47,194 bases of DNA from a virus (taxonomy: Duplodnaviria; Caudoviricetes): positions 1 through 47,194 of the IMG/VR virus record IMGVR_UViG_3300048819_000088, one strand, 5' to 3'. The notes under the pieces were generated by a model. The model did not search any database. It was not told the DNA's origin and saw nothing but the letters and a program-made list of their open reading frames with translations. A program made the translations under genes and the position numbers. Positions 3,866 through 32,544 of this stretch are shown piece by piece. How positions within the stretch are numbered: the first letter of the stretch is position 1; each line of letters starts with the position of its first letter.

Positions 3866-4924
3866 ATGGCCCTTATCCAAAAACCCAACACTGACAAACT
3901 AACGCCCGGCACGCGCACGACAATCGACTCAATGGAAATCCCGTCATTTCGATTCTTGCTTGGACAGCAGGAGCGAACGTTAAAAAACATTTTGATAAGA
4001 ACGCCACAAGCACTTGGTGATTGTGTATGCGCTGAGCCTGCAATTCGTTATGCGCAAAAGCACTTCAAGGACAGTGAGGTCTCGTTAGTTACGCCATGGC
4101 CTGACCTCTTTCGTCACATACCGAGCATAAAAAAGGTTTACTTCGGAAGCGTTCAACCCGACTGGGACAAATATTATGTTCTAGAGTGCTATCATGCGGC
4201 TGACGCTCTTCAATCGGACTTTGTACACAACTTCAATATGGCCATTGAAGACTACATTTCGGTTTCGCTCTTTAAGGGCATGATGCCGGTCAAGGACCGC
4301 AACATCATCTTGAAGCCAAACGACATTGAGCGCGCATCGGTAGGCCCAAGTCAGCAAGTCGTTATCCACGCAGGCCGCCATTGGATTTCGAAAACGTTTC
4401 CAAAGAAGTGGTGGGACGGCATTATTCAGGCCTTCGTCGCAAAAGGGATAAAGCCTGCACTTGTCGGCGCTAAGATTGCCGGAAGTAACCGCGGCTATGT
4501 GGACGTTGATGCAAATCATTGCCTCGATTTCCGCGATAAGCTTACGGTTATGCAGTCAGTTGCGCTCTTGCAAAACGCGCAAGTCGTTCTCACCAATGAC
4601 AGTGCCCCTTACCATATGGCGTGCTCTTCGGACGGCGAACGCATTGAAGGGCCGTGGGTCGGCGTGTTCTCGACAGTGAGACATTTCGATTTCATCGGGC
4701 ATTGGCGTCCAGGGCGCGGACCTTGGGACCAACTGACAAACGTTTGGAACTCCAAAATTGAAAACTTGGCCAAAGGGCAAATGTGGCAAGACACTGACAT
4801 CACGCCTGGCCGCAATGGCGCAAAGTACGACGTGATTGACCACACCACACTCATGACATGGCTTCCGGAACCCGAAGAGGCTGCGCATTGGGCGCTGACA
4901 AGGGTACTCGGTGGGCGCGCCTAA
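3866..4924 (+). CDS. GT9/heptosyltransferase-like glycosyltransferase, paralog 1
   Basis: ALGDCVCAEP, HAGRHWISKTFPKKWW, LTNDSAPYHMA motifs. Confidence 0.85.
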   Translation: MALIQKPNTDKLTPGTRTTIDSMEIPSFRFLLGQQERTLKNILIRTPQALGDCVCAEPAIRYAQKHFKDSEVSLVTPWPDLFRHIPSIKKVYFGSVQPDWDKYYVLECYHAADALQSDFVHNFNMAIEDYISVSLFKGMMPVKDRNIILKPNDIERASVGPSQQVVIHAGRHWISKTFPKKWWDGIIQAFVAKGIKPALVGAKIAGSNRGYVDVDANHCLDFRDKLTVMQSVALLQNAQVVLTNDSAPYHMACSSDGERIEGPWVGVFSTVRHFDFIGHWRPGRGPWDQLTNVWNSKIENLAKGQMWQDTDITPGRNGAKYDVIDHTTLMTWLPEPEEAAHWALTRVLGGRA

Positions 4925-6296
4925 CCTTATCCGCATAGGCCCGCAAGAGGGGCCACAAACCGATTTCTTAGGCTGTCCGGCTGACATCGGCATTTACGGT
5001 GGGGCCGCCGGCGGGGGCAAATCGTTTGGCCTATTGCTCGACCCTTTACGCCACCATGATGTCGCCGAATTCGGCGGCGTGGTGTTTCGTAAGACCTCAG
5101 TGCAAGTGCGCAACGAGGGGGGCCTTTGGGACGAGTCAATGAAGCTTTATTCGCTCTTTGGTGCGAAGCCTCGTGAGTCGGTGCTCAATTGGCAATTTCC
5201 AAGCGGCATGTCTATGTCGTTTGGAAACCTCGAGCTCGAGAAAGACGTGCTCAACTTCCAGGGCGCGCAAATACCGTGGATTGGTTTCGACGAGCTGACC
5301 CACTTTAGCGAATCGCAATTTTTCTACATGATTTCTCGCAATCGCAGTACATCCGGTGTACGCCCGCGCATTCGGGCCACCTGCAATCCCGACCCCGACA
5401 GTTGGGTCAGAAAGTTCATTGATTGGTGGATTGGGGCCGACGGCTACCCGATCAAAGAGCGCGCAGGCCTTATTCGTTGGTTCGTGCGCATGAACGATAA
5501 AATCATGTGGTTCGATAGCCCCGAGGACGTCTATGCAATTTACGGTAACGGTCCTGAAATCCAGCCAAAAAGTGTATGTTTCATTCCAGCTAAACTCGAA
5601 GACAATAAAATTCTCATGGAAAAGGACCCTGCGTATTTGGGGAACCTACTTGCCCTTAATCGTGTGGACCGGTTACGTCTCAAAGAGGGGAACTGGAATG
5701 TTAGAGCCCAAGCTGGAATGCTTTTTCAGCGCGAATGGTTTCCAGTTATCGACGCGATACCGAGCGGTTGGCTGCAGGTTGTACGTATGTGGGACCGTGC
5801 TGCAACGAAACCCCACGAAGGCAACAAAGACCCCGATTGGACAAGAGGCCTGAAAATGTACAAGTACGCCGACGGTACTTTCGTCGTTGGCGATCTTTGC
5901 TCAATCCGCGATACGCCTGGCCAAGTCGAAAGGCTTATCAAAACCGTGGCAGGCAATGACACGGTACAAGTAAAGATTGTGGCGCATCAAGACCCGGGCT
6001 CAGCCGGCGTTCTTGAGGCCGAAAACTTCACCAAATTGCTCGTCGGTTACTACGTGAAAACCTATGTGGTGCCGCGAGACGTGTCGACAGGTAAGCGCGA
6101 CAAGATCACTAGGGCAAAGCCGGTTTCGGCGCAGTGCGAAGGCGGCAACATCAAGGTCTTGCGCGCGGGTTGGAATGACGACTTCTTTGCCGAGCTTGAA
6201 AACTTTCCGGACGGCGTCCATGATGACATTGTTGACGCATTTTCAGGGGCATTCAATGATTTGAGCGGCGGGCTGTCGCTCGCTGACGTTTTGTGA
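4911..6296 (+). CDS. terL: terminase large subunit
   Basis: YGGAAGGGKS Walker A, IGFDELTHF Walker B, ATCNP, nuclease motifs WDRAAT and HDDIVDA. Confidence 0.97.
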   Translation: MGAPNLIRIGPQEGPQTDFLGCPADIGIYGGAAGGGKSFGLLLDPLRHHDVAEFGGVVFRKTSVQVRNEGGLWDESMKLYSLFGAKPRESVLNWQFPSGMSMSFGNLELEKDVLNFQGAQIPWIGFDELTHFSESQFFYMISRNRSTSGVRPRIRATCNPDPDSWVRKFIDWWIGADGYPIKERAGLIRWFVRMNDKIMWFDSPEDVYAIYGNGPEIQPKSVCFIPAKLEDNKILMEKDPAYLGNLLALNRVDRLRLKEGNWNVRAQAGMLFQREWFPVIDAIPSGWLQVVRMWDRAATKPHEGNKDPDWTRGLKMYKYADGTFVVGDLCSIRDTPGQVERLIKTVAGNDTVQVKIVAHQDPGSAGVLEAENFTKLLVGYYVKTYVVPRDVSTGKRDKITRAKPVSAQCEGGNIKVLRAGWNDDFFAELENFPDGVHDDIVDAFSGAFNDLSGGLSLADVL

Positions 6297-6306
6297 GGGG
6301 GACAGT

Positions 6307-8214
6307 TTGAGCCGTAAGAATCGAAATAAGAACCGTGGGGCCGTAGTACAGCATAATGTGACCACACCCGCACCGGGCGCTATTCAATCGGAAAGGCCTA
6401 CTGACCCCGGCGAGCGCATCATCATCCCCAACATGCGGGAAATCATCATGAACGCAGGCCAACAAAACGCAGCCATTGCAAACGGATTTGGCGAAGCGAT
6501 AGGCTTTAGCGGTGGCCCCGGCATTGGCGGCGGCATCAATCCCTCGGGTTTCGCCGGCGGCTTTCCAGGTGTTCCGGCCATTTCGGACACTACGACCGCA
6601 TTCGAAAACCTTCGTTGGTTCTTGGTCTCGAACTTCCGCCAACTCTTATCGCAGCTCTATGTCGAGATTGGCCTTGTCAAAACCATTTGCGTGGTGCCGG
6701 TCATGGACGGCTTGCGCGGGGGCGTGACGTTTAAGTCAAAGCAAATGGACGAGCAACAGCTCATTGACCTCAAAATCGAAATGGACAAGAAAGACGACAT
6801 CAACACCGCGGGTTGGGGCTCAGTGTGGCAACGCCTTTACGGCGGCGGCGGCATTCTTACTTTGGTGGACGACCAAGACCCCGAAGACGAGCTTGACCTC
6901 GACAACATCAAAGAGGGCGACGAAGTCGGCTTTCGGGCTGTCGACATGTGGGAGCTCTATTGGGACAAACAAAACGTCGAGGGGTACGATGCAGAAATCA
7001 CACGTGAAGACTTTCAGTTTTACAATTACTATTCCGAGCAAGTACACAAGAGCCGCGTTATGCGTCTTAAGGGTCTTGAGGCGCCTTCGTTCATTCGGCC
7101 ACGCTTGCGGGGTTGGGGCGTCAGTGAAGTTGAAACGCTTATCCGGTCCATGAACCAATACATCAAGGCCACCGATCTTGGCTTTGACGTGCTCGACGAA
7201 TTTAAGCTCGACGTTTACAAAATCAAAAACCTCGTGAACACACTTCTTTCACCAAACGGCACGCAGGCAATCCAACAGCGGGTACAACTCGCCAACTGGC
7301 AAAAGAACTACCAACACGCTGTCGTCATGGACAGTGAGGACGATTTCGATCATAAACAGTTATCGTTTTCAGGTCTTGCAGAGGCTATGCAGGGCATTCG
7401 CATGCAGGTCGCATCCGACATGCGCATTCCCGCAATTAAGCTCTTTGGGCAATCGTTCTCGTCAGGCGGCCTTGGCACTTCAAGCGTCGAAGAGATGGAA
7501 AACTACAACGCCATGGTTGAGTCGGAAGTGCGCAACAAGCTCAAATGGCATTTGCTTCGCATGGGCGAAATCCGTTGCCGTCAAATGTTCGGCATGATTC
7601 CGGATGATTTGGAAATTGAGTTTAAACCTTTACGCGAGCTGAGCGCAATTGACCAAGAAACGGTTAAGACGCAAAAGTTTACGAGGCTCGCGCAAGCGAA
7701 AGCTTCCGGCGACCTTACAACCCAAGAATACCGGGATGCGGCCAATAAGGGCCAACTCTTTGACGTGCAGCTCGACACCATTGAAGACGGCCTTAACCCC
7801 AATGACCCCGAAATCGAAGAGGTCGCATCGGGCGAGCGAAGTCAGTCAATGCAAGTTGGTGATGATAACGACGCCGAAGAGGACGACGGCGGAAAAGACG
7901 ACGAGGACGGGGCCAACAAATCCGACACCGCCAAAGTTGCACCAAAGCTCACCGCAGTCAGAAATGAAATCTTACAGTTCAATGCGTTTGATTCGTTGAA
8001 ACGCTTTTTCAACAGCGCTGAATTCGACAAAGCCAGTTACGAGGCCGACGGCGGCGATGATTGGATTGCGACAGGCCGTAAAGAGCTGTTCGGCACTGAC
8101 GAGGCCATGGACAAATCGCTTTATGCGAAATGCATGAGCGAAGCTGAAAAGCTCGGTCTTGGTTGGAAGTTTTGCGTTTGGCTTTATAAGAAACAAGGGG
8201 GCAAGTTCTCATGA
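6307..8214 (+). CDS. portal protein (DUF1073-type) with acidic linker and extra C-terminal domain
   Basis: Follows terL; RLYGGG, HKSRV, GWGVSEV, IPAIKLFGQS, ENYN motifs. Confidence 0.9.
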   Translation: MSRKNRNKNRGAVVQHNVTTPAPGAIQSERPTDPGERIIIPNMREIIMNAGQQNAAIANGFGEAIGFSGGPGIGGGINPSGFAGGFPGVPAISDTTTAFENLRWFLVSNFRQLLSQLYVEIGLVKTICVVPVMDGLRGGVTFKSKQMDEQQLIDLKIEMDKKDDINTAGWGSVWQRLYGGGGILTLVDDQDPEDELDLDNIKEGDEVGFRAVDMWELYWDKQNVEGYDAEITREDFQFYNYYSEQVHKSRVMRLKGLEAPSFIRPRLRGWGVSEVETLIRSMNQYIKATDLGFDVLDEFKLDVYKIKNLVNTLLSPNGTQAIQQRVQLANWQKNYQHAVVMDSEDDFDHKQLSFSGLAEAMQGIRMQVASDMRIPAIKLFGQSFSSGGLGTSSVEEMENYNAMVESEVRNKLKWHLLRMGEIRCRQMFGMIPDDLEIEFKPLRELSAIDQETVKTQKFTRLAQAKASGDLTTQEYRDAANKGQLFDVQLDTIEDGLNPNDPEIEEVASGERSQSMQVGDDNDAEEDDGGKDDEDGANKSDTAKVAPKLTAVRNEILQFNAFDSLKRFFNSAEFDKASYEADGGDDWIATGRKELFGTDEAMDKSLYAKCMSEAEKLGLGWKFCVWLYKKQGGKFS

Positions 8215-8405
8215 CACCAACATGGTGGCTTATCGTAGGTACTGCGGTCATTTGGATTGTGTACGACATTTTGATGTACCTCGAGTACGGCAATAAGGCG
8301 ACCGAAAGTGTGCTCATTGACAAATGGGCGCGCATCAAGCCGTTTTTATTTTTGGCGGGCTTTCTTTGTGGGCATCTTTTCTGGCAAGTCCATATTTGTA
8401 ATTGA
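8211..8405 (+). CDS. small two-TM membrane protein
   Basis: Two hydrophobic segments; GFLCGHLFW ending. Confidence 0.7.
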   Translation: MTPTWWLIVGTAVIWIVYDILMYLEYGNKATESVLIDKWARIKPFLFLAGFLCGHLFWQVHICN

Positions 8406-8415
8406 GGGGGATTTT

Positions 8416-8826
8416 ATGAACGAACAGGTATTTTGGTCGCCGGGCGTAACGCTCGAGGGAATAGAGAAACAGGTCATTCTTATGGCCTTTCGATTTTACC
8501 GTGGAAACAAAACGCAATGCTCAATCTCACTTGGTATCAACGTGAGGACTTTAGAGCGCAAATTAGAGGACTATGAAAATGCCGACAGAAAACAACGAGA
8601 AACCGAAGAGCTTGAAGCCAGTGACCGAACTAGACAACTCGAGCGAGCCCGCGGCGTCTACCAAACGCCGGAAGGCCCACGTCTCTATGGGTCCGCTTCC
8701 GGGGCACACGTGGAACCCACTATTGAGGCTCCCCCGAAACATGCCATGCCCGTGCCGGAGTCAAAAGAAGTTCAAAGTGTGTTGCCTAAGCAAGCTTCCG
8801 CAAGCGGTCAAAATCGAAGACGCTAA
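8416..8826 (+). CDS. Fis-type helix-turn-helix protein (like the DNA-binding domain of sigma54 activators)
   Basis: TLEGIEKQVILMAFRFYRGNKTQCSISLGINVRTLERKL; GAGGGGG RBS. Confidence 0.85.
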   Translation: MNEQVFWSPGVTLEGIEKQVILMAFRFYRGNKTQCSISLGINVRTLERKLEDYENADRKQRETEELEASDRTRQLERARGVYQTPEGPRLYGSASGAHVEPTIEAPPKHAMPVPESKEVQSVLPKQASASGQNRRR

Positions 8827-8971
8827 GACCTACGAAGAGCAAATCGCTAAAGGCGAATTGGTGTTTGTGACAAAAGAGAACGAGCTTGAAATGAGAGTTG
8901 CGGCGGACATGCAGGGGTACTTTAAAGAGCTCGACCGCCGCAAACGTGAAGAGAACCAAGGGGTAAACTAG
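8687..8971 (+). CDS. SEC-C motif zinc-binding protein (start uncertain, ORF open from 8573)
   Basis: PRNMPCPCRSQKKFKVCC matches the SEC-C consensus. Confidence 0.8.
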   Translation: MGPLPGHTWNPLLRLPRNMPCPCRSQKKFKVCCLSKLPQAVKIEDAKTYEEQIAKGELVFVTKENELEMRVAADMQGYFKELDRRKREENQGVN

Positions 8972-10597
8972 ATGCGTACACTAATATTTTTGATTCTACA
9001 AATCGCTTGTGTAATCACACAAAATGCTTATGGCGCGATTGGCAACACCGCAGTTTGGGAAGTCGAGCAAAACGCGACGGCATCGGATGTCAACGGCGGG
9101 GGCTTTGACCCCGGCATCGGAACTTGCGGGACAGACTACTCGCAACAGGCGGCGGCGCAATTTAGTTTTACCGATTTGGCCACGACAACAGGGACTACGA
9201 CTTGTGTGGTCACTTCGGCGTCACACAACTTCGTTTCAACCGACAGCTGTAATGCGGTTCACATAAACAGCGGAACGAGTTGGACAGCGGGTTGGTATTT
9301 TATCACGTCAGTATCGGGCAATGCTGCGACTCTTGACCGCGCGTGCGGTTCAGCGGCCACACTCACAGCGGGGACTTGGCACGAAGGTGGCGCCCTATCT
9401 TGGCAAGCCTCTTCGACTACAACTTGGGCAGCGGCAATTTCCGCAGGCAACACCATTTGGATAAAATACAGCGCAACTCAGTACACGTTCAACGGAAGCA
9501 TTGCAATCACCGACAGTACGGTCACGCATCAAGGTTTGATGTCGGGCTACAACACGGTTCGCGGGGATAACCCGACGGGCGCTAACAGGCCGGTCTTAAA
9601 TTTAGTCGGTAGCTCAAACGACGTGGGCGCCTATACTGTCGTTCAAAATTTAATTTTCACGGGCAATGCCGTCACACCAATGTCGAGTGACGGGTTTACG
9701 ACCTGGCAAAATAACAAGTTCATGAACACGAGTACGAGCTCGGGGCACTTCGGAGTCGGCAACGGGGCCGATGACCTTTTCATTAATAATGAGATTATTT
9801 CGCAAGCGGGCTTTGGCGCATCTAACAATGGTGATTCGACTTTTTACGGCAACTACTTTCACGACACGCCTACCTGTTACCGCTTTAGCGGAACAGCGCC
9901 CATGATGCTCTTATACAATATTTTTGTGGATTGCCCAACTGCGGCTATTTCTATAACTGCGGCTGAAATCGAAACGGCTTTGATTGCCAACAACACGCTT
10001 AAAGGCGGGAACGTCCAAGGCGTTGGCGTAAGTGTGGCCTCGGGCGCAGGCGGCGCTCGCTTGGTGGGCAACATCATAACGGATTTCGCAACTGGCATTT
10101 CGGCCACAACGGCCAATACCAACCAATGGTCGAACTGGAATGACTTCTTTTCGAACACGACCAATCGGACAAACTGGACGGCGGGCGCTTCCGACTATTC
10201 GGCGGACCCCGGTTTTCAAAGTGTAAAGGTGATTTCAGGTTCGGCGGGCACCGTGTCCGGCTCAGTGCTGACCGACGCTGCGGCTGACTTCACGAGTTTC
10301 GTCGACAATACCGACTACGTGATGTTCATCTCGGGATCCGGCCTCACGGTCACGCCTGGCTCAATCTTAGGTACTTCGCACACCACGCATTCGGTAACGC
10401 TTGCGACAGCGCCCGGCGGGTCCGGCTCAAACGTCAACTATGTAGTCGTTACGGGCCACAACTTCTTACCGGGGCCGAATGTAGTCAACAAAGCATTTCC
10501 CGGCATCTTTCCAGGGGCTTTGACGACAGGTTTTCTAAGCTCAGGCGCAGTTCAAAAATTGCCGGGTTTCCCGCGCAAATCCGGGGGGCAACACTAA
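8972..10597 (+). CDS. Ser/Thr/Asn-rich beta-helix-like protein with signal-peptide-like leader (putative head fibre/adhesin)
   Basis: Repeated xNNxF/I beta-helix pattern; MRTLIFLILQIACVITQNAYG leader. Confidence 0.65.
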   Translation: MRTLIFLILQIACVITQNAYGAIGNTAVWEVEQNATASDVNGGGFDPGIGTCGTDYSQQAAAQFSFTDLATTTGTTTCVVTSASHNFVSTDSCNAVHINSGTSWTAGWYFITSVSGNAATLDRACGSAATLTAGTWHEGGALSWQASSTTTWAAAISAGNTIWIKYSATQYTFNGSIAITDSTVTHQGLMSGYNTVRGDNPTGANRPVLNLVGSSNDVGAYTVVQNLIFTGNAVTPMSSDGFTTWQNNKFMNTSTSSGHFGVGNGADDLFINNEIISQAGFGASNNGDSTFYGNYFHDTPTCYRFSGTAPMMLLYNIFVDCPTAAISITAAEIETALIANNTLKGGNVQGVGVSVASGAGGARLVGNIITDFATGISATTANTNQWSNWNDFFSNTTNRTNWTAGASDYSADPGFQSVKVISGSAGTVSGSVLTDAAADFTSFVDNTDYVMFISGSGLTVTPGSILGTSHTTHSVTLATAPGGSGSNVNYVVVTGHNFLPGPNVVNKAFPGIFPGALTTGFLSSGAVQKLPGFPRKSGGQH

Positions 10598-11389
10598 ATG
10601 AGTTTATTTAAGCAATCAACTGCGGCCAACGTCGCCTTTTTGATGATAAGTAATGCCGACAACACGTCGCCGGTCACGGGGCTAACCCCTACGGTGACGA
10701 TTTCGAAAAACAATGCGGCTTTCGCAAGTCCCGGCGGCTCGGTCAGTGAAATCGGCAATGGTTGGTATTCACTCGCATTGAACACAACCGATGCGGGGAC
10801 ACTTGGTGAACTCTTACTGCACGCGACAGGTACGGGCGCCAACAACGTCGATGACCGCCACCAAGTGGTTGTGGACTTGCCAGGCGCCACCGTCTCAAGC
10901 GTAACCGGCAATGTCGGCGGCAACGTCACGGGGAGCGTTGGAAGTGTAGTAGGGGCCGTAGGCTCGGTTACAGGTGCGGTTGGCTCAGTCACGGGCAACG
11001 TTGGCGGTAATGTGGTCGGAAACGTCAACGGCAATGTCGTAGGCTCGGTCGCCTCGGTGACAGCGCCGGTTACTGTCGGCACCAACAATGACAAGACCGG
11101 GTACGCGCTTGCAGTCGCGCAAGTGCCGTTTAAGAAAAACACGGCGCTCGCGGGCTTCACGTTCCCGATGTTCAATTCGTCAGGCGCACCACTTACCGGC
11201 CTTACCGTCACCGCTCAGCGCGTGATTGACGGCGGCGTGATTGCGAGTTGCACGAATGCGGTCACTGAGGTCTCAAACGGCATTTACGCAATCAACCTGG
11301 CTGCAGCCGACCTTAACGGCAATAGCATTACGTTCTTGATGTCAGCCGCGGGCGCAGTTGTAACGACCTTCACGGCGGTCACTCAATAA
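10598..11389 (+). CDS. putative virion fibre/spike: two homologous beta domains flanking G-x-V repeats
   Basis: PVTGLTPTV...EIGNGWYSLAL vs PLTGLTVTA...EVSNGIYAINL; central VTGNVGGNVTGSVGSV repeats. Confidence 0.65.
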   Translation: MSLFKQSTAANVAFLMISNADNTSPVTGLTPTVTISKNNAAFASPGGSVSEIGNGWYSLALNTTDAGTLGELLLHATGTGANNVDDRHQVVVDLPGATVSSVTGNVGGNVTGSVGSVVGAVGSVTGAVGSVTGNVGGNVVGNVNGNVVGSVASVTAPVTVGTNNDKTGYALAVAQVPFKKNTALAGFTFPMFNSSGAPLTGLTVTAQRVIDGGVIASCTNAVTEVSNGIYAINLAAADLNGNSITFLMSAAGAVVTTFTAVTQ

Positions 11390-11925
11390 TGGCGGCAATC
11401 TTTTGGAAAACACCGGGCGGGGGCGGCACGAGCACTGACCCGGGCATTGCGAATGTACTGAGCGGCGTCGCCTACAAGATCAACGGCACCAATTTGGTGG
11501 GTACGCTCATCCAAGTTTTCAACACGATTCAAACGCAGGCCGTTCTTATTGGCCAATCACTTTCAGCTATTTTGACCGCAACAGGGGGCTCAGGCATGTT
11601 GTCATTCACTCAAGGCGACGAAGTTGTTTTAAACCTAACGGCGCAGGACGGGTCAGGCAATCCGATCAATCTCACTGCGGCCACGTTCTCAACACAAATG
11701 CTTGGTGTTGGTGCAGCGGGGCCGGTGACGTTCGGGAACTCACAACACGCCATTGTGAACGCAGCCCTTGGGCAATTCAGCCTTACGCTTGCACCAACGG
11801 ATACGGCGAGTGTGGGCATCGGCAACAACAAGGACATTCTTACGCAAGTCACGCAAAGCGGAAACCCCATGTACGTGCGCGGTACTGCGATCTTGACGGT
11901 CAATCCACCAATCCCGTTGTCATGA
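11389..11925 (+). CDS. putative virion adaptor protein with C-terminal Ig-like/BppU-like domain
   Basis: TQGDEVVLNLTAQDGSGNPINLT...GQFSLTLAPTDT pattern. Confidence 0.55.
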   Translation: MAAIFWKTPGGGGTSTDPGIANVLSGVAYKINGTNLVGTLIQVFNTIQTQAVLIGQSLSAILTATGGSGMLSFTQGDEVVLNLTAQDGSGNPINLTAATFSTQMLGVGAAGPVTFGNSQHAIVNAALGQFSLTLAPTDTASVGIGNNKDILTQVTQSGNPMYVRGTAILTVNPPIPLS

Positions 11926-12917
11926 AATTTTTAAGGGTCATCAAGGAATCGACCGAAGACTACGAGGCCGTGGAAAAGAAAATCCTGGTCCTCTTCAAGC
12001 GCGAGATTTATTTACCGCTTGTCCGTATTATGAAGCCAAATCGAAACGTGCTCACCAACGCCAAGCCCGGTCTACTCGACGCAATTAAGTATGGACGAAT
12101 TCAGTTTTATCGTGGAACCTTTAGTGGACGGTTTAATGCGAGCATTTCGAAAGAGCTGCAAGCACTAGGCGCGCGGTGGGACCGAAAACAAGGAACGTGG
12201 AAGGTTTCATCATCGTCACTTACTCCAGAAATCAAGCTCGCTATTCAAGCGAGCGCTTCGCAGTTTCAGCGGACCTTGGACGCTATCGACAAAAAGCTTG
12301 CGGCAATTTTACCGGGCGAAATTGCTGACCGCCTTAAAGTCGACACACTTTTCGACACCACTTTATGGAAAGTTGAGCGCGAATTTGCCGCAACGCTTAA
12401 AGGTTTGACTGTACCGCCTCAGCTTACGAAATCGCAGCGCGCGAGCATTGCCCGCGATTGGCAAAACAACATGAAGCTATTCATCAAGGACTGGACTCAA
12501 AAAGAAATTGTCGAGCTCCGAAAGAACATGCAAGAGTCGGTATTCGCAGGGAATCGGTACGAAACAGCGGTAAAGACCATTGAAAAATCGTACGGTGTCG
12601 CCACGGGAAAAGCGAAGTTTCTTGCTCGACAAGAGACCGGCCTACTCATGGCGAAGTTTAAGGAAGTCCGGTACAAAGACGTGGGGGTCAGAAAGTTTAA
12701 ATGGCGGTGTGTTTCGGGGACCGCGGCTCATCCAGTCCGGCCCGCGCACAAAGCACTTGATGGAAAAGTTTTCAGTTGGGACAATCCTAGAGAACTCGAC
12801 AAAAATGGCTTCGTCAATCCTAATGGTGCTCACAAACCGGGCGAAAACAAAAACCCCGGTGAAGACTACAATTGTCGATGTACTGCGGTTCCGATAGTCG
12901 AATTTGGGGGAAAGTAA
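11922..12917 (+). CDS. minor head morphogenesis protein (Mu gpF / SPP1 gp7 family)
   Basis: AKFLARQET, FKW, VRPAHKALDGKVFSW, PGEDYNCRC. Confidence 0.92.
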   Translation: MKFLRVIKESTEDYEAVEKKILVLFKREIYLPLVRIMKPNRNVLTNAKPGLLDAIKYGRIQFYRGTFSGRFNASISKELQALGARWDRKQGTWKVSSSSLTPEIKLAIQASASQFQRTLDAIDKKLAAILPGEIADRLKVDTLFDTTLWKVEREFAATLKGLTVPPQLTKSQRASIARDWQNNMKLFIKDWTQKEIVELRKNMQESVFAGNRYETAVKTIEKSYGVATGKAKFLARQETGLLMAKFKEVRYKDVGVRKFKWRCVSGTAAHPVRPAHKALDGKVFSWDNPRELDKNGFVNPNGAHKPGENKNPGEDYNCRCTAVPIVEFGGK

Positions 12918-12919
12918 AC

Positions 12920-13303
12920 ATGGACGTATTGACGAATTTTCTGGCAACTCTTTGCCTACTTTGCATGACCTGTTGCGCGCCGGTACAGGCCGCGACCAAT
13001 ACGACAGCCGTTCTTTCGCTCAATACGGCCACCACAAACGTGACCACGGGCGCCTTTGTCGTACTGTCTGCAAGCCTTCCTTTCGCACCTTCGCAAATCA
13101 TCGTCACCAACGCAACAACTTCGGTTCTCAAGTTCTCATACGGCCCAAGCGGTTCGGAAGTGGACTTTGTCGGAGTTGGCGGCTCGGCCACCATTGTAAT
13201 CGAGCAACTTTCTAAGCATCTCGTCACCGGCACTAGGTTCGCAGTCGAAGCGATAAGTGGAACAGCCTCAAGCGGCTACATCCTAGTGAGTTTGATTCCA
13301 TAA
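12920..13303 (+). CDS. small beta-rich protein with signal-peptide-like leader
   Basis: Hydrophobic leader ending VQA; GGGGGA RBS. Confidence 0.65.
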   Translation: MDVLTNFLATLCLLCMTCCAPVQAATNTTAVLSLNTATTNVTTGAFVVLSASLPFAPSQIIVTNATTSVLKFSYGPSGSEVDFVGVGGSATIVIEQLSKHLVTGTRFAVEAISGTASSGYILVSLIP

Positions 13304-14511: not shown

Positions 14512-14533
14512 CCCAAGGAAAGGAAACTAAGTC

Positions 14534-21257: not shown

Positions 21258-21421
21258 AGGCCGAAGACGATGTTTTGTTGATTCATCTCCGGCTTGTGAA
21301 AGCGGGCTATGGCTCCCTCAAAGAAGTCAGGGAGTTTGATGCCCGGACGGTCTTGCAAGCGTTAAACTATGAAGCGTTTTGCGACGACTACGAACGGACT
21401 TATTGGGAGTTGAATAAGTGA
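21188..21421 (+). CDS. -1 frameshift extension of the tail assembly chaperone (G-T type)
   Basis: C CCT TTC heptamer at 21188-21194 in the X XXY YYZ register; the -1 frame is open to 21421. Confidence 0.75.
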   Translation, partial: PFLERPLCRVHNAVRESGQRPAIEAEDDVLLIHLRLVKAGYGSLKEVREFDARTVLQALNYEAFCDDYERTYWELNK

Positions 21422-23463: not shown

Positions 23464-23464
23464 G

Positions 23465-23818
23465 ATGTACTTAATTCAACAGTTAACCAGTGCGCCCGCT
23501 CAAACTCAGACACTCATCTTGCCGGCGGGTACGCAGGCCAATCTCACCATAGCCTACTACCCTCAGTGCTATGCATGGTTCATTTTGGCGTTGACTTATC
23601 AGTCGTTCACTTTGAACGGTATGCAAATCACGGCGAACCCGAACATGCTTAACCAATGGCGGAACTCACTCCCGTTTGGGCTTGGCTGTTTCGTGACCGG
23701 AAACCGCGAGCCCACGCAGCAACAAGATTTCCAAAGTGGTGCGGCTCAGCTTTATATTTTGTCAGCGGCGGAAGTCGCCGAGTATGCGGCCTTTTTAAGC
23801 GGGACGGTGACGTCTTAA
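23465..23818 (+). CDS. baseplate plug-like protein
   Basis: Size and position; APAQTQTL...WFI pattern. Confidence 0.65.
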   Translation: MYLIQQLTSAPAQTQTLILPAGTQANLTIAYYPQCYAWFILALTYQSFTLNGMQITANPNMLNQWRNSLPFGLGCFVTGNREPTQQQDFQSGAAQLYILSAAEVAEYAAFLSGTVTS

Positions 23819-24685: not shown

Positions 24686-25443
24686 GCGGCCAAACAATCC
24701 CCTTAAACTCAGTGCCGAACGACCCGAACTTGAGCGATCTTTTGAATTTGCTCAAGAAAGAGATTTTTCTAGACCTCAATTGCCACCACGTGGGGACAAT
24801 TCAAAGCTTCAATTCGACGAACCAAACCGTGTACGCGACCGTCAATTACACGAAGACGTTCTTTCAGCTCAACACGGTAACGGGCCTTTACTCGCCCGTT
24901 CAAGTCAACTACCCGACTCTTATCAATTGCCCGCTTATCATCCTTGGCGGGGGCACCGCGCACATGACCTTTCCAGTCGCTAAAGGCGACGAATGCCTGT
25001 TGCTTTTCAATGACCGAGACATCGACAATTGGTGGGCCGCCGGCACGACCACGCAGGCGGTAGCGACCTCGAGGCTTCACTCGTTTTCGGACGCCTTTGC
25101 ATTGGTGGGGGTCAAGTCGACACCTAACGTGCTAACCGCCTACGACGCTGTAAGAGCCCTCTTGACGAACGGTAACGTGAGTGTGGGCATCAACCCGTCA
25201 AACAACAAGGTCACGATTCAAAACACGGCCTCGGGCACGCTCAACACCACACTGCAAAGCATCTTGACGCAGCTCCAAAATCTCACGACCGCGCTCGGCA
25301 CCACTTACGCCTCGAACTTGATTTTGGTGACAGCTTCGCCGGGTAGCCCTTCGCCGATCAATCCGACTGCGGCCACGGCGATTGCGAACGTGGGCACGCA
25401 ACTTTCAACGCTCGCCACGACTCTCGGGGGGTTACTCGAATGA
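24682..25443 (+). CDS. baseplate central spike (Gp138-like OB domain)
   Basis: TFPVAKGDECLLLFNDRDIDNWW, RLHSFSDAFALVG. Confidence 0.85.
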   Translation: MSGQTIPLNSVPNDPNLSDLLNLLKKEIFLDLNCHHVGTIQSFNSTNQTVYATVNYTKTFFQLNTVTGLYSPVQVNYPTLINCPLIILGGGTAHMTFPVAKGDECLLLFNDRDIDNWWAAGTTTQAVATSRLHSFSDAFALVGVKSTPNVLTAYDAVRALLTNGNVSVGINPSNNKVTIQNTASGTLNTTLQSILTQLQNLTTALGTTYASNLILVTASPGSPSPINPTAATAIANVGTQLSTLATTLGGLLE

Positions 25444-25802
25444 GCACAAGAGCAATTGACGTAAATGGCGATTGGGTTTTCGGAACAGGGGCCAACGCCT
25501 ACGTAACCGGCAAAGCCGAAGTCGCCCAAAACATCCAAACTAGGCTTTTGAGTTTTCTTGGTGATTGCTTTTTCGATACAACCGCCGGCATTGACTGGTT
25601 TAATTTGCTCGGCGGTAAGAACCAAGTCACGTTGCAACTTGCAGTTGCGGCGGTTATTTTAAACACTGCAAACGTAACGGGGGGCCTGCAACTTTCGGTA
25701 ACGTACAATGAACAGACCCGAAACCTCGGTATCGTTTACCAAGTTCAAACGACCTATTCGCAGTTGTCGGACAGTTTCGTTTATGACTTGAGCTCAATTT
25801 AG
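25440..25802 (+). CDS. baseplate wedge/sheath initiator
   Basis: RAIDVNGDWVFG, LLSFLGDCFFDTTAGIDW. Confidence 0.8.
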   Translation: MSTRAIDVNGDWVFGTGANAYVTGKAEVAQNIQTRLLSFLGDCFFDTTAGIDWFNLLGGKNQVTLQLAVAAVILNTANVTGGLQLSVTYNEQTRNLGIVYQVQTTYSQLSDSFVYDLSSI

Positions 25803-25814
25803 GGGGATAAAGAC

Positions 25815-27494
25815 GTGCCAAATGCATTGACTACAACAGGCCTAACGATTGTCACGCAAAGCGAGCTCGTGACGAACTTCACCACTAACTATCAGGCCAT
25901 TTACGGCTCGAGCATCAACTTGGCGTCGAACACCCCCGACGGCCAAATGATGATGATCTACATCCAAACCCTTTTGGACAACGCGCAACTGTTGCAGCTC
26001 ATTTACAACTCGTTCGACCCCGACCAAGCGGTCGGCATCCAACTCGACATGCGCGTGGCGATCAACGGCATTCAGCGCCAAGCGGGCACCAACACAATCA
26101 CCAATATTACTTTGGTGATGTCGCAGTCGGTGAACCTCTATGGTCTTGACCAAACGGCGCAATCGGTTTTTACCGTTGCCGACAACGCCGGCAATCAATG
26201 GCAACTCCAAACGACGCAACTTGGTGTCTCGGGCACTCAAGTTTACGCCTTCCAAGCGGCAAACCCCGGCGCGGTTTTGACCACGCCCAATACAATCACG
26301 ATTCCAGTGACCGTTGTGCTCGGTGTGACTTCAATCAACAATCCGACGACTTACACGACTCTTGGAATCAACGCCGAGACCGATGCGGCCTTACGCATCC
26401 GGCGCCTGCAATCCGTTTCGCTCGCAAGCCAGGGCTATTATGCAAGCCTCTTGGCGGCGCTTGAGAACATCAACGGTGTGACCTCGGCTTTCGTTTACGA
26501 AAACACTTCAAGCGGCACCAACGTCGCGGGCGTGCCCGGGCATTCGATTTGGGTCATTGTCGCAGGCTCAGGCTCGGCGGCTGCGATTGCGCAAGCGATC
26601 TACTCCAAGCGGAATGCGGGCTGCGGGATGTATGGCGGGACTACTTATTTAGTGACACAGGTTGATGGAAGTCAGTTTCAGGTCGCATGGGACGTGGTAT
26701 CGACTCAAAACCTCTTTGTCGCCTTCACTGCGACGTCGGTCAACGGAACGGTGCCGCCGAACATCAATGCGGTAAGAACGGCGCTCGCCACAAGCTTCGC
26801 CCCGGGCGTTTTCTCTGAGGTCAACATCAATCAACTTGCGACTTTGGTTCAAGCCATTGACCCGAACACTTTGGTGACAAGCGCAGGCTTTAGCTTGGCG
26901 CTCACGCAAACCCTAGGTCTTTCAGGGGTCGCAGCATCCGGCACTTTCTTAGTCAACTACAACGGCAACGCCTCGGCTGCGATCAATTGGAACGATACGG
27001 CGGCCCAAATTCAAACGAAGCTGCGCGCGGTGACGGGATTGACCGCTTGTACCGTGACGGGCTCAATCGCAAGTCAATCTTTGGTGATTGCACTCGGCGT
27101 GACCTCAGCGCTTGGTTTACTCTATGTGACTTCGAATTCGCTTATGACGGTGGCCCCGGCTGCGATCACTTTCACTTACAACGAAGGCTATACGAACACG
27201 CTAACGCCTACCGCGCAAAATAACCAATTTGCCGTCGCGTCGGCCCGCATCGTCATCGTTGCCTTACAAATTTTACCGTCATCGGCAACAGTCGCGCACA
27301 CCGCCACCAAACAATTTGCAGCGTACGGCGGTTACGGGACCTATGTTTGGTCACTCGCCACCAACGCAAGTGGGGGGTCGATCAATTCAGGCACCGGGCT
27401 TTACACTGCGGGCTCAACCCCGAACGTCACCGATGTCATCCAAGCAACGGATGTCTTCGGCAATTTCATAACCGCGAACATCACGGTGACTTAA
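25815..27494 (+). CDS. baseplate J-like wedge protein with inserted domain and C-terminal Ig-like domain
   Basis: TPDGQ, FDPDQAVGIQLD, ETDAALRIRR, PGHSIWVIV. Confidence 0.9.
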   Translation: MPNALTTTGLTIVTQSELVTNFTTNYQAIYGSSINLASNTPDGQMMMIYIQTLLDNAQLLQLIYNSFDPDQAVGIQLDMRVAINGIQRQAGTNTITNITLVMSQSVNLYGLDQTAQSVFTVADNAGNQWQLQTTQLGVSGTQVYAFQAANPGAVLTTPNTITIPVTVVLGVTSINNPTTYTTLGINAETDAALRIRRLQSVSLASQGYYASLLAALENINGVTSAFVYENTSSGTNVAGVPGHSIWVIVAGSGSAAAIAQAIYSKRNAGCGMYGGTTYLVTQVDGSQFQVAWDVVSTQNLFVAFTATSVNGTVPPNINAVRTALATSFAPGVFSEVNINQLATLVQAIDPNTLVTSAGFSLALTQTLGLSGVAASGTFLVNYNGNASAAINWNDTAAQIQTKLRAVTGLTACTVTGSIASQSLVIALGVTSALGLLYVTSNSLMTVAPAAITFTYNEGYTNTLTPTAQNNQFAVASARIVIVALQILPSSATVAHTATKQFAAYGGYGTYVWSLATNASGGSINSGTGLYTAGSTPNVTDVIQATDVFGNFITANITVT

Positions 27495-28454
27495 ATGACG
27501 CCGCTGCAACTTCTCACCTATTATGCGAACTTGCTCATTCTGCAATACTTGCAAAAGCCGAAAGCTTACGCGACGGCTCAAGCGTTAAGTTCGCAAGCGA
27601 TCTTGCCGCAAACGACAGTGCAGTCATTGTCGTTCACGGGGACGCCGGCGTCGGGCACTTTCCTTTTGAACTGGACACCAAACGGGATAAGCCAAGCGAC
27701 AACTACAAGTGCCGCAATCAACTGGAATGACTCGGCCTCGCAGGTTCAAACGAAAATTCAGGCCATGACCGGGCTTTCAGGCCTAACGGTCGCGGGCTCA
27801 ATCCCCGCAGGGCTTAGCGTGACCTTTACGGGCGTCATCCCCGTGGCCCCGCTCTTTGTCGTGAGCGCAAACTCGCTTGCGACTTCGGGGGCTGTTGCCG
27901 TTCCGATTGCGGTCGCTCAAACTGACGTCGTACTCCCGCTTGCGGTCGCAAACGGCTTTAACATCAACTCGGCCCTTGGGGCTGTTGCCGTCGGTTCTCA
28001 GCTCAACATCTTGGGCAAATATGCAGGCGTCACGCGCATCGGAAATCTTACAGCCGGACAAATCACTTTAAGTGACGCCGATTTCCTTGTGCTCATTCAG
28101 TTCGCGGCCCTCAAGAACAGTGCGGGCTCGGACTTAAAGACGATTCAAACCTTGATCAATCAATTTTTCCCGGGCGAAATTTTGGTGTTCGACTACCAAA
28201 ACATGCAAATGAGCTACCTGATAAGCTCAAGCGTCGGTAGTCAAAACCTTGTGCGCGTGCTTGTCGTGGAAGGCCTGTTATTTAGACCGATGGGGGTTTC
28301 GAGCGGGCTACCGATTTATAACCCGACCATTACAACTTTTTTTGGATTTCGAACTTACACAATCGTCACAATCAATAACACGCCTTTCAATAGCTACACT
28401 TCGTACCAGTCGAACGGACCGTGGTTGAGTTATGCAATGGCATTGACGAATTAA
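27495..28454 (+). CDS. baseplate wedge protein (DUF2612-type) with inserted domain
   Basis: YANLLILQYLQKPKA, AVGSQLNILGKYAG, LSDADF, RPMGV. Confidence 0.85.
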   Translation: MTPLQLLTYYANLLILQYLQKPKAYATAQALSSQAILPQTTVQSLSFTGTPASGTFLLNWTPNGISQATTTSAAINWNDSASQVQTKIQAMTGLSGLTVAGSIPAGLSVTFTGVIPVAPLFVVSANSLATSGAVAVPIAVAQTDVVLPLAVANGFNINSALGAVAVGSQLNILGKYAGVTRIGNLTAGQITLSDADFLVLIQFAALKNSAGSDLKTIQTLINQFFPGEILVFDYQNMQMSYLISSSVGSQNLVRVLVVEGLLFRPMGVSSGLPIYNPTITTFFGFRTYTIVTINNTPFNSYTSYQSNGPWLSYAMALTN

Positions 28455-28463
28455 GGGGGACAA

Positions 28464-29195
28464 ATGGCGAGACTTGCAAGGTACACACAAAGCGTTTTTG
28501 GCTCAACCGCGGGCGCGAATCAAATGGCTGAATTTGGGAGTTTGGCGGCAAGTGCGCCTTTAACCTATTCCGGCACGACAATCACGCCGGCCATTGTGCA
28601 GACCCTTTCCAACTACTTATCGGGTTGGTTTAGCGCCATTGTCGGCGCCAACAGTCCGGCCATTGAGGACATGAACGCGATTTGTTATCTCTTCGCTTAT
28701 CAACTGAGTTATCTTATGGGACTTGGCGTTGCTGAGTGGGACGCAGGGACAACTTACTATGCCGGAAGTATTTGCCAAGACGGGAACGGCAACTTGTTTG
28801 TGTCCCTCACCAATACAAATCTCAACAACGCCTTAACGTCCGCGGCCAATTGGCGCAGCTACACCAAAGGTAACAATTTGGTGGCGGTTAACCCCGCCGG
28901 CGGCACCTATACAAGCCCTTACACCATGACGAGTGCCGACACTGGCAAAGTCTTTCTCGTGAATTCGGCCAATGGCGCTATGACTTTCAACTTGCCAAAT
29001 CCCTCGTCTTTACCGCAAGGTTTTAACTTTGTTGTTAAAGACGCCGCAAATAACTTTGGAGTCAACAACTGCACGATGCATAGGTTTGCGGGTGAGAACT
29101 TTGAAGGTGTTGCAGCCGACTACGTCATTGCGGCGTCCGGCGGCGAATGGGAAATTTCAACAGACCTTACCAACTGGTACATCACGGGGAGATAA
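28464..29195 (+). CDS. tail fibre proximal subunit
   Basis: PAIEDMNA...LSYLMGLGVAEWDAGTTY fibre-attachment motif. Confidence 0.75.
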   Translation: MARLARYTQSVFGSTAGANQMAEFGSLAASAPLTYSGTTITPAIVQTLSNYLSGWFSAIVGANSPAIEDMNAICYLFAYQLSYLMGLGVAEWDAGTTYYAGSICQDGNGNLFVSLTNTNLNNALTSAANWRSYTKGNNLVAVNPAGGTYTSPYTMTSADTGKVFLVNSANGAMTFNLPNPSSLPQGFNFVVKDAANNFGVNNCTMHRFAGENFEGVAADYVIAASGGEWEISTDLTNWYITGR

Positions 29196-29197
29196 AC

Positions 29198-30742
29198 ATG
29201 GGAGCAATTGCAAGAAAAACCTTTACCGCAAATGGGAACTTTACAGCCCCCGCGGGAGTCAATGTTGTCAGGCTCATCGGGTCTTTGCCGGCGCCGACAC
29301 TCGCAGGCTCGACATTTTTTGGAAACCAAACGATGGTTATCGCCCAGGACGGGCTCCTATACGCTTGGGGTACAAACAGCTCGGGCGGTTGTGGAAGTGG
29401 TGGCACGACAAACATAAGCACACCTACACAAGTTTTGAACTCAGCTACAATTAAATTCTTAAATGTAACTGGCACGTATGGCGGCGGGGGTGACTTTGGA
29501 ACATATGGAATCTCACAAACTCTCGACATGTACGCGTGGGGCGGGAATGGAAACGGCAACTTGGGTCAAGGGAACCTCACGCCTTATAGTTCTCCCGTTA
29601 TGATTCTAGGAGGTCTTAAGTTCGTTCAGGTTATTGCTATGCCTGCTGGAGGCGGTTCATATAGCCAGGGTACTTTCATGCTCACGAGTACGGGTGTGGC
29701 ATACGCCATGGGCGCAAACATAAATGGGCAGCTCGGAGTTGGGGATGTCGTATCGCGAAGCTCACCCGTCGCCGTTCTTGGGGGGCTTTCTTTTGCATCC
29801 CTTTACGCAGCTTGGCCGAATCAATCCGCGTTTGGCTTAACCGCAGCAGGGAAACTGTATGCTTGGGGCGGCAACGCCAATGGAAATCTGGGCATCGGAA
29901 ACGTTACGCCTCAAAGTTCGCCTATTGCAGTTCTTGGGTCTTTAAGTTTCTCACAAATAATTCCCGACCAAGCTGCCGCTTCCATGTATGGCCTTACAAC
30001 TACGGGCCTACTCTATGCTTGGGGCCTAAATACCAACGGCCAGCTCGGAGTCGGTGACGTTATTCCGCGCAGTTCACCTGTCGCGGTTCTGGGCGGTCTT
30101 TCCTTTACACAAGTCGTCGCAGGAAACAGTTCCGTTATGGCCCTTGCTACCAACGGCACGACGTATGCTTGGGGCAACAACGCCAACGGGCAACTCGGAA
30201 CCGGAAATGTTACCCCAACAAGCTCACCTGTCGCTGTCTTGAACTCCGCTTCTTTGCTCTTCACTCAAATCGCAAATAACTATAATAGCTCGTCGGTTGG
30301 GGCTTCGGGTTATGGGCTAACCGCTGCGGGGGTACTTTATGCGTGGGGCGTGAATGCGAGCGGGCAACTTGGAACTGGAAACGTTACACCGACAAGCTCC
30401 CCTGTTGCCGTTCTCGGATCTTTAAGTTTCTCACAAATTTTCAGTGCCAATAGTGCCGCTATCGGAACGATGTACGGCTATGCAAACAACCAACTTTACG
30501 CTTGGGGATACAACCTAAACGGCCAAGTGGGCGACGGCACTGCGGTCGCAAAAAGCTCGCCCGTCGCAGTCCTCAACCGCGTCCCCAACCTAGTTTCGCC
30601 GCAGACTGTTATGGTCTTGCCAGTTACTCCAGGTACGACGTATGCAGTCAATATAGGCACTCAAATTCGAACGCCGGCGTCCTTTGGGAGCACGAACCTC
30701 GGGCAAGCGTTCACTTCGGTTGTGGTGGAGTATGAACAGTAA
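29198..30742 (+). CDS. RCC1-repeat protein, putative receptor-binding tail protein
   Basis: Eight YA(W/M)GxNxxGx(L/C/V)G...SPVxV repeats. Confidence 0.9.
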   Translation: MGAIARKTFTANGNFTAPAGVNVVRLIGSLPAPTLAGSTFFGNQTMVIAQDGLLYAWGTNSSGGCGSGGTTNISTPTQVLNSATIKFLNVTGTYGGGGDFGTYGISQTLDMYAWGGNGNGNLGQGNLTPYSSPVMILGGLKFVQVIAMPAGGGSYSQGTFMLTSTGVAYAMGANINGQLGVGDVVSRSSPVAVLGGLSFASLYAAWPNQSAFGLTAAGKLYAWGGNANGNLGIGNVTPQSSPIAVLGSLSFSQIIPDQAAASMYGLTTTGLLYAWGLNTNGQLGVGDVIPRSSPVAVLGGLSFTQVVAGNSSVMALATNGTTYAWGNNANGQLGTGNVTPTSSPVAVLNSASLLFTQIANNYNSSSVGASGYGLTAAGVLYAWGVNASGQLGTGNVTPTSSPVAVLGSLSFSQIFSANSAAIGTMYGYANNQLYAWGYNLNGQVGDGTAVAKSSPVAVLNRVPNLVSPQTVMVLPVTPGTTYAVNIGTQIRTPASFGSTNLGQAFTSVVVEYEQ

Positions 30743-31862
30743 AGACGGCAAAATTCAAGTTCCCGTTCTCGAGGGGACCATGACCCCCGTTCAAGAGGGG
30801 CATCACTACGACGCCACCAAGCGTGTCGCAGTACCCATGACGCACCTTCCGATTTTCCGCACGACCCTTGCAATCCAGGCCGGGGTCGAAAAGAAAATCA
30901 TGCTTAAAACTTGGGGCGGCCTCGGTGATCAAATTTGCGCCGAACCAACTCTTCGTTGGGCGGTAAAGACCTTTAAGGACATTGAGGTTTACTTAGCGAG
31001 CGAGAAACCATTTTTGTTTAAGCATTTAGATTTCAAGAAAGTTTACGACACCCGGGACGTAGTTCCGCATTGGGGTAACTTCCTTTGCTTTGACACGATT
31101 CAACCGCCCGATGACTCAAATCTCGTGTGGCAATTCTTTTCGCACCTACTTACTAACTGCGTGGACTTTCCCTCTATGTGCGCATTTCGGATGCAGCTCC
31201 CCGTTCAAGAGCGGGAAATCATCATGAAACCAAGCATCGCAATTGACCACTACTTGCACGCAGTCGTCCAAAAGCCGACGGTCCTAGTTCATGCAGGACG
31301 CCATTGGATGACTAAGACTTTCCCGAAAGATTGGTGGGACGGCGTTCTTTCCGGGCTCGTCAATCAAGGCCTTACCCCTATTTTAATTGGTGGGGACACC
31401 GACGACAACCGCGGGACTGTCGACGTCGACACGAGCGGTTGTAGGGATTTCCGCAACAAGCTCACCATTGAAGAGTCGCTTTGGCTTTGTCAGCGTGCAA
31501 CGGTTCTGCTCACGAACGACTCGGCCCCGCTTCACATGGCCGCAACTCGCAATCCCGACGACAAAATGACGGGCAATACTTGGATTGGTTATTTCGCAAC
31601 TTGCAAACATTGGGACTACATCACTCATTGGCGCAAACCCTTTGACCGTTATCCAAACGAAAAACTCGCATGGCAATGGCGCGAAGAGAACTTAAGTCTT
31701 GGCGGCATGTGGGACATCACCAATCATTGCCCGAATCAAGAGGCCGACGTCAACGTGGACAAAGTTGACCCGGAAATTTTACGTTCATGGCTTCCGGCCC
31801 CTACGAGTGTTGTCGCTTGGGCGAAAGAGAAATGGGAAACAGGTAGCTCCAATGATTATTAA
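30732..31862 (+). CDS. GT9/heptosyltransferase-like glycosyltransferase, paralog 2
   Basis: GGLGDQICAEP, HAGRHWMTKTFPKDWW, LTNDSAPLHMA. Confidence 0.85.
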   Translation: MNSKDGKIQVPVLEGTMTPVQEGHHYDATKRVAVPMTHLPIFRTTLAIQAGVEKKIMLKTWGGLGDQICAEPTLRWAVKTFKDIEVYLASEKPFLFKHLDFKKVYDTRDVVPHWGNFLCFDTIQPPDDSNLVWQFFSHLLTNCVDFPSMCAFRMQLPVQEREIIMKPSIAIDHYLHAVVQKPTVLVHAGRHWMTKTFPKDWWDGVLSGLVNQGLTPILIGGDTDDNRGTVDVDTSGCRDFRNKLTIEESLWLCQRATVLLTNDSAPLHMAATRNPDDKMTGNTWIGYFATCKHWDYITHWRKPFDRYPNEKLAWQWREENLSLGGMWDITNHCPNQEADVNVDKVDPEILRSWLPAPTSVVAWAKEKWETGSSNDY

Positions 31863-32544
31863 AGAGTACGACTTAGGCTTTAAGGCCCGCATAAAGTTTA
31901 GAGCCTACACCGGCGACGAAGACATCATTCGGGCCGTTCTCATTGACCGCAGCGAGTACCAACTCTTTCTTGGCGTTCATCCGAAAGTGATCTTTGATGT
32001 CGGCGCCAACATCGGCGTGACCTCAATTCTTTTCGCCAACAGCTACCCGCAAGCCGCAATTTATGCTTTTGAGCCTGAGCCCTCAAATTTCAAACTCTTG
32101 GTCGAGAACACGGCGCCTTACGAAAACGTCAAGTGCTTCAATGTAGGGCTCGGCGGCAAGACCGAAAAACGCTCACTCATGAACTCGGACGACGAGTACA
32201 ACCACGGCGGGTTTTCATTTCACGCGCCGGGCTCGGACCCGAGCAAACAACAAACTGTCGACGTGGTCAACATCCTGGACTTTATCGAAAACGAAAAGGG
32301 CCTTAAGATTGACCTTATGAAAGTGGACACCGAAGGCTGCGAATACGAAATCATAGAGCCTCTTTATCTTGACGGCCAGTTACCGCCCTATCTCATGGGC
32401 GAAATGCATGGCAACGAGAACGATTGGCGCATGTTCGACCAACTGTCACACACGCACGACATCCGCATCAACAAAGATTTCTTGCAGCGCTGTTACCCGT
32501 TTTACGCGCTCAAAAAACCGGAAGTAGTCAATGCCGGAACTTGA
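31852..32544 (+). CDS. FkbM-family SAM-dependent methyltransferase
   Basis: IFDVGANIG, YAFEPEP, LMKVDTEGCE. Confidence 0.92.
   Translation: MIIKEYDLGFKARIKFRAYTGDEDIIRAVLIDRSEYQLFLGVHPKVIFDVGANIGVTSILFANSYPQAAIYAFEPEPSNFKLLVENTAPYENVKCFNVGLGGKTEKRSLMNSDDEYNHGGFSFHAPGSDPSKQQTVDVVNILDFIENEKGLKIDLMKVDTEGCEYEIIEPLYLDGQLPPYLMGEMHGNENDWRMFDQLSHTHDIRINKDFLQRCYPFYALKKPEVVNAGT

Follow-up and report, generated by a model that had tools for sequence, protein, structure and literature searches.

The 47,194-base virus record IMGVR_UViG_3300048819_000088 (hereafter the window, i.e., the whole stretch of DNA that was analysed) raises the question of what two glycosyltransferase (GT) genes of heptosyltransferase type are doing among the genes that build a phage particle. 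The record is a complete one and carries the contractile-tail operon of a myovirus. GT_A (3866..4924, + strand) abuts a terminase small subunit-like gene (terS; 3485..3865, +), so labelled from a DUF5681 match and its position, and overlaps the gene for the terminase large subunit (terL; 4911..6296, +). GT_B (30732..31862, +) is part of a chain of overlapping genes made up of an RCC1 β-propeller gene of the tail module (29198..30742, +; Pfam RCC1 E 8e-56), GT_B itself, a gene for an FkbM-family S-adenosylmethionine (SAM) methyltransferase (31852..32544, +) and the next gene. This layout agrees with an original prediction made from the same DNA, as does the FkbM assignment, which passes the cut-offs of both PF05050 (Pfam E 4e-16) and TIGR01444 (94 bits vs. 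37.7). The locus is best read as encoding GT9-fold enzymes that glycosylate protein, with a methyl cap as an option. More specifically, we give a probability of about 0.6 to O-glycosylation in the cytoplasm that is dedicated to the RCC1 protein, the sugar being probably heptose and optionally methyl-capped, a reading in which we infer both the donor and the acceptor.

Both GT genes are free of stops, and their products are clear paralogs as originally claimed, being 39% identical over 339 amino acids (E 1e-77) and sharing all eight of the motifs that had been quoted. The proposed GT9 resemblance is also borne out: both proteins score above the gathering cut-off of the Pfam GT9 family PF01075 (32.2 and 35.5 bits vs. 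22), through the C-terminal lobe only, and the structure comparison places the GT9 structures WaaF, TibC and 3tov among the closest folds, these three being matched by a structure model of GT_A (pLDDT 81). The T4 β-glucosyltransferase (BGT) was not among the 50 fold matches listed, an absence from the list that does not amount to exclusion. In GT_A, D52, K176, D245 and H250 are invariant among 26 close homologues, and the catalytic and donor-site residues are invariant in 121/121 and 26/26 GT sequences. In sequence alignments, D110 and K230 of TibC correspond to the invariant D66 and K195, and D261 and H266 of WaaC to D263 and H268. The catalytic Asp of WaaC is D13. Its equivalent, D110 in TibC, is kept in the window enzymes together with the donor-site Lys, Asp and His (roles of TibC residues, including D110 and K230, according to PMC4358343). 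Matches were found for 608 of 1,838 candidates with GT_B and 87 of 2,141 with GT_A, and no phage in GenBank matches the two enzymes.

The association of GT_B with RCC1 extends well beyond the window. Of the 59 GT rows compared, two from the window and 57 from dereplicated relatives, 39 have RCC1 encoded within the three preceding genes, including phages that have no further gene in common with the window. Since selection on the GT itself was to be avoided, a baseplate gene then served as the search anchor, with a query alignment drawn mostly from GT-positive phages plus Bdellovibrio phage phi1422; 88 tail loci that continue for 5.5 kb or more beyond the anchor were kept, giving 63 after dereplication, the window and phi1422 included, and one RCC1 gene skipped by the open reading frame (ORF) caller was scored from the whole-record search. 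RCC1 occurs with a GT_B-type GT9 gene in 13 of these loci and alone in none, the GT occurs alone in two, and 48 have neither. Such a GT therefore accompanies RCC1 in 13/13 RCC1-positive loci vs. 2/50 RCC1-negative ones, which include fragments that may hide GTs elsewhere (Fisher p 1e-11, a value to be read with the phylogeny considered below). On a quick tree the pair is scattered, with 10 changes for RCC1 and 11 for the GT. Among 50 whole records, six of which were chosen because they bear a GT, all 10 RCC1-positive ones carry a GT9 gene, and a GT without RCC1 is present in five, two of them complete. Three relatives (L019, L083, and L023) have three tandem RCC1 genes and a single GT9 gene.

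A candidate site for the modification is provided by the blades of the propeller. In the window protein, [S/T][S/T]P follows a GxLG motif in all seven detected repeats, and takes the form Ser-Ser-Pro (SSP) in six. SSP is found in 148/215 repeats of 40 GT-linked RCC1s vs. 48/164 repeats of 28 chromosomal RCC1s, and x-S-P is enriched in the linked set (p 2e-8, or p 2e-4 when counted per protein). From five records in which no GT is annotated next to RCC1 came 17 repeats, five of them with x[S/T]P and none with SSP; the record L377 (ON073792.1) was excluded from this control, as its RCC1-like gene looks cellular. In that record, the gene lies among polysaccharide export and transferase genes. Motif and enzyme type covary, possibly through descent, because the RCC1s located beside GT8-GT9 fusions are rich in x[S/T]P (91/96 repeats) but poor in SSP (only 16). 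The RCC1 protein of the window is the likely acceptor of GT_B.

The gene downstream of GT_B has counterparts as well, with a SAM methyltransferase of one of three families encoded within four genes downstream of 18 of the 35 linked GTs. This slot is occupied by a Methyltransf_24-like family (10 cases), a second family recognised by motif only (five), or FkbM (four). The methyl cap is optional, and FkbM is predicted to act as a sugar O-methylase. Further neighbours of the GTs include GT8 fusions, GT2, a sulfotransferase, an aminotransferase, and a UDP-glucose dehydrogenase, a set that would fit the tailoring of a small glycan. Between the portal and head genes of one relative (L420:6619-10028), GT2, hexapeptide transferase, UDP-glucose dehydrogenase, and FkbM genes are found together. 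As for the donor, an HldE kinase domain scores above cut-off in 56/61 genomes of the probable host family, and GmhA-like genes, with scores under cut-off, are present in 3/5 metagenome-assembled genomes (MAGs). ADP-heptose is a plausible donor and heptose the likely sugar, going by gene content.

A comparable pair is present in other phages and in chromosomes of Bdellovibrionota. In the cultured cyanophage BUCT-ZZ01, the gene order is tail fibre, chaperone, SSP-type RCC1, and then a protein of 571 aa that shows GT9-like motifs and matches a methyltransferase weakly; cyanophage S-SRM01 has a similar arrangement. The GT9-like label of these partner proteins rests on motifs, because they score below both Pfam GT9 and our own GT profile. 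RCC1 is also encoded in 42/61 genomes of the probable host family. In a set of 20 chromosomal regions picked with the motif known, 19 of which have an RCC1 ORF, a twin-arginine (Tat) motif was found in 7/9 [ST][ST]P-rich RCC1s vs. 0/10 others (p 0.0007, for proteins that are not independent). Three of these seven Tat-motif RCC1s, two of them near relatives, are followed by a gene homologous to that of the cyanophage enzyme (E about 1e-67), and in one case a methyltransferase gene comes next. The SSP-type chromosomal RCC1s with twin-arginine motifs belong to L498-L504, from genomes in the family of G050, and most other chromosomal RCC1s have lipobox or Sec-type starts. Proteins exported by the Tat route fold in the cytoplasm, and these RCC1s would therefore be within reach of a soluble GT.

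In the mechanism that we propose, GT_B would modify the SSP serines in every blade of the RCC1 protein with a sugar, which is probably heptose taken from the ADP-heptose of the host, and FkbM would methylate the sugar so placed. The reaction would be a cytoplasmic one that precedes or accompanies the assembly of the tail late in infection, and its product would be a glycosylated fibre tip on the virion, by analogy with TibC serving TibA. The fold, the intact active-site residues, the coupling of the genes and the enrichment of the motif were observed, whereas the presence of RCC1 in the virion, the target of methylation, the host and the purpose are, like donor and acceptor, inferred. Fold similarity does not discriminate between protein and lipopolysaccharide (LPS) heptosyltransferases, and the fold match is a tie with WaaF. 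The Fisher test above overstates independence, because the tree offers just two independent pairs whose branches are well supported (sign test p 0.5). Four of the seven Tat-motif RCC1s have no GT nearby. A broader proposal is that a hitherto undescribed O-heptosylation system for RCC1 β-propellers, common to phages of several hosts, where it would act on tail tips, and to predatory Bdellovibrionota, where the RCC1s would be exported by Tat, places methyl-capped sugars on the SSP of the blades, and that in this phage a second, re-targeted copy brings other virion or exported proteins under the coat; it is tentative and, taken as a whole, rather improbable.

The alternative that survives best, though unlikely, is that the GTs alter the LPS or another surface glycan of the host to which the RCC1 fibre binds, and thereby mask the receptor, for superinfection exclusion or for avoidance of debris. 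Such a logic likewise predicts obligate co-occurrence of RCC1 and GT; in addition to the tie with WaaF, every sequence-level match of the window enzymes is to an LPS heptosyltransferase model, and FkbM enzymes are able to methylate cell-surface sugars. However, the enzymes remain far under the family cut-offs of WaaC/WaaF/WaaQ (PDB 2h1h, 1psw) and of the Veillonella GT9 protein (3tov), scoring 13-24 bits against the NCBIfam cut-offs of 135-569 for LPS-heptosyltransferase equivalogs (about 20 vs. 135-185 for the WaaC/F/Q TIGR models). The basic N-lobe segment of WaaC/F/Q is absent from them in sequence alignments, and the net charge is -2.6 +/- 2.4 (also given as 0 and -1) vs. +5 to +6 in WaaC/F/Q. 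In LPS heptosyltransferases, this basic surface serves lipid A and Kdo. Full-length close homologues are found on phage-type contigs only: the best 80 loci from 185,579 prokaryote genomes include just three that combine closeness with full length, and all three show phage gene order on contigs of 44-69 kb. No membrane or flippase partner was seen among the scanned neighbours. The idea that RCC1 and GT are paired for the sake of receptor masking is further weakened by the presence of the pair in phages as different as the cyanophages and in chromosomes beside Tat-signal RCC1s, where a masking role is not evident.

Glycosylation of the RCC1 protein leaves GT_A to be accounted for. GT_A nests in the tree within the RCC1-linked GTs, as part of a subclade with 12 members, 11 of them not located after RCC1, and the five terS-terL copies form a single clade. 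On this tree, GT_A is a derived, RCC1-independent lineage that was inserted once, and a recent duplication is excluded. Its sister genes follow the capsid gene or fibre genes and stand beside Ser/Thr-rich proteins with signal-peptide-like starts. GT_A was found in 6/62 portal-anchored loci. Within the same 62 loci, a gene that in the window (8972..10597, +) encodes a 541-aa, Ser/Thr-rich (0.23) predicted right-handed β-helix (Atlas feature and structure matches), with a start that is signal-peptide-like by eye and by a crude script, is present in three of the five GT_A loci in which this region can be seen, and all loci devoid of GT_A lack it. The β-helix protein is a candidate acceptor of GT_A, albeit not an obligate one. 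In the closest complete relative, GT_A and the β-helix gene are present and RCC1 and GT_B absent; the complete genome G001 has GT_A without GT_B or RCC1, and most relatives have GT_B without GT_A. The original prediction had offered one enzyme per module or a two-step chain; these separate occurrences favour the former, and the chain is unlikely because GT_A occurs without GT_B. GT_A comes from the same family as GT_B but no longer accompanies RCC1, and it likely glycosylates a different set of late proteins, either the exported-looking β-helix or exposed tail proteins. Ser/Thr-rich operon genes with signal-peptide-like starts are seen at 8972-10597 and 12917-13303 in the window and at L162:40429-42273 and L010:4931-7482 in relatives, and the β-helix homologue of L038 apparently has no such start. 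For some of these Ser/Thr-rich products, the fate may be export instead of cytoplasmic virion assembly.

The original prediction was broader, in that many head and tail proteins rich in Ser/Thr would be coated by the two GTs to shield the virion in general, which we now regard as improbable, somewhat more so than receptor masking. In its favour, the Ser+Thr fraction of the cement, sheath, spike, and DUF2612 proteins of the window is 0.20-0.21 vs. 0.08-0.12 in the GT-less phi1422, and that of baseplate J is 0.22-0.26 in a four-member clade, Ser/Thr-rich like the window that it includes, vs. 0.195 +/- 0.022; this clade signal represents one lineage, however, with GT_A shown in only two of the four members. 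Carriers of GT_A/B-type enzymes show small Ser+Thr gains in sheath, spike, and gp18 (p 0.005-0.007, uncorrected for 15 genes). A GT9-like gene of some kind is located among the virion genes of 29/63 relatives: 16/63 have, with or without RCC1, a compact family (~250 aa) encoded between baseplate J and DUF2612, and relatives also bear another divergent GT9. The compact family, not found in the window, is characterised by GxGD and DSGPSW motifs and weak Pfam matches (e.g., L219:11680-12459 and L278:11680-12450). Yet phages with any GT9 and those with none are alike in the Ser+Thr content of 15 structural genes (all p >= 0.067), and the domains inserted into sheath, baseplate J, and DUF2612, which the shield would have as acceptors, do not track the GTs (p 0.16-0.78; GT carriers vs. 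others, 7/17 vs. 21/45, 10/17 vs. 17/45, and 3/7 vs. 6/27). These results go part of the way towards the refutation that the original prediction had named for itself, namely relatives that retain the GTs but are devoid of the Ser/Thr-rich domains.

It is very unlikely that GT_A, or with even less probability GT_B, glycosylates phage DNA around packaging. GT_A does lie between the two terminase genes, with a ParB-N6/N4 DNA methylase fusion (2116-3492) further upstream, immediately before terS, and the region before terS in relatives often holds Que, Mom, TAGT, 3'-phosphoadenosine 5'-phosphosulfate (PAPS)-reductase, or methylase genes; in one relative, a GT2 gene replaces GT_A in the terS-terL slot. 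Phage GT-B enzymes can moreover use host heptose and place it on 5-hydroxymethylcytosine, but the enzymes of these 5mYOX clusters resemble T4 BGT and need a C5-methyltransferase and 5mYOX (10.1101/2023.12.21.572611), and the window has none of that context. The lack of a base-hydroxylating or hydroxymethylase gene, already pointed out in the original prediction, was confirmed for Tet/JBP (0/1 genome) and for hydroxymethylases (none in 68 scanned ORFs). The place of GT_A among RCC1-linked GTs, with sisters adjoining Ser/Thr-rich genes, also argues against a DNA substrate, as does L261, a relative with Tet/JBP and a GT that has no GT9; its cluster of ParB, Tet/JBP, and glycosyltransferase genes (L261:17204-19892) is of DNA-modification type. 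Least probable of all is a GT9-fold chaperone for fibre folding or assembly, a role suggested by the usual tail-fibre chaperone position of the gene but contradicted by the invariant catalytic and donor-site residues, by the methyltransferases and additional GTs clustered alongside, and by the separate tail chaperone of other RCC1 phages.

The sole cultured match of the capsid protein is the major capsid protein of phi1422 (48.6% identity; NC_019525.1), with which the head and tail genes of the window are collinear, although phi1422 has no match to GT9, RCC1, FkbM, or the β-helix. A baseplate relative, L366, is carried on a 177-kb Bdellovibrio sp. contig, and the phage-sized contigs of other relatives have mixed MAG labels. 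Because of the phi1422 and L366 matches, the host is likely a member of the Bdellovibrionota. A proximal tail-fibre gene (28464..29195, +; PHROG tail fibre matches and gene order) precedes RCC1 here and in most relatives. Refined gene starts are probably 29198 for RCC1 and likely 31852 for FkbM; for GT_B, an alternative start at 30780, with a stronger ribosome-binding site, is possible. Elsewhere in the window, an Acb2/Tad1-family anti-defence protein is encoded at 40716-40940 (- strand; Pfam E 4e-11), and two frames overlap at 8308-8826 and 8573-8971, one resembling phi1422 gp46 (Fis-like regulator), the second having a SEC-C motif and homologues in relatives too.

The nearest known protein-modifying enzymes are the bacterial autotransporter heptosyltransferases (BAHT) TibC and Aah, which act with TibA and AIDA-I (PMC4358343; PDB 4rap, 4rb4). 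The window GTs are only 10-13% identical to TibC, do not match its N-terminal β-barrel (PF21129), have no counterpart of its four-Cys iron finger in the alignment, and keep two of the five residues D110, K230, T226, R286, and W305, with R286 and W305 lost; their membership in the TibC family was rejected on these grounds. The partner of the BAHT enzymes is an autotransporter β-helix, whereas here it would be a phage β-propeller, along with a methyltransferase. Mycobacteriophages glycosylate their capsid and tail tube with genes near the right genome end (Freeman et al., 2023, as cited in PMC12619734 and PMC11256854). Their phage-encoded GTs decorate virion proteins, as those of the window would do in the reading proposed here; the window differs in having a GT9 enzyme tied to one tail-module gene and a likely Gram-negative host. 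In the literature consulted, the phage virion glycosylation that is cited concerns mycobacteriophages, and phage GT genes are mostly read as modifiers of DNA or host surface (PMC12619734, PMC12801897, PMC8066274); no description of the RCC1-GT9 pair was found in the open-access literature searched. A GT9 family of more than 600 proteins is linked to a single named tail protein in which a motif marks the candidate site, and the cultured cyanophages that carry the pair are a source of real virions. If true, the enzymes that heptosylate proteins would include a further family besides BAHT, and host-recognition proteins would bear a layer of sugar that could change stability, adsorption, or grazing.

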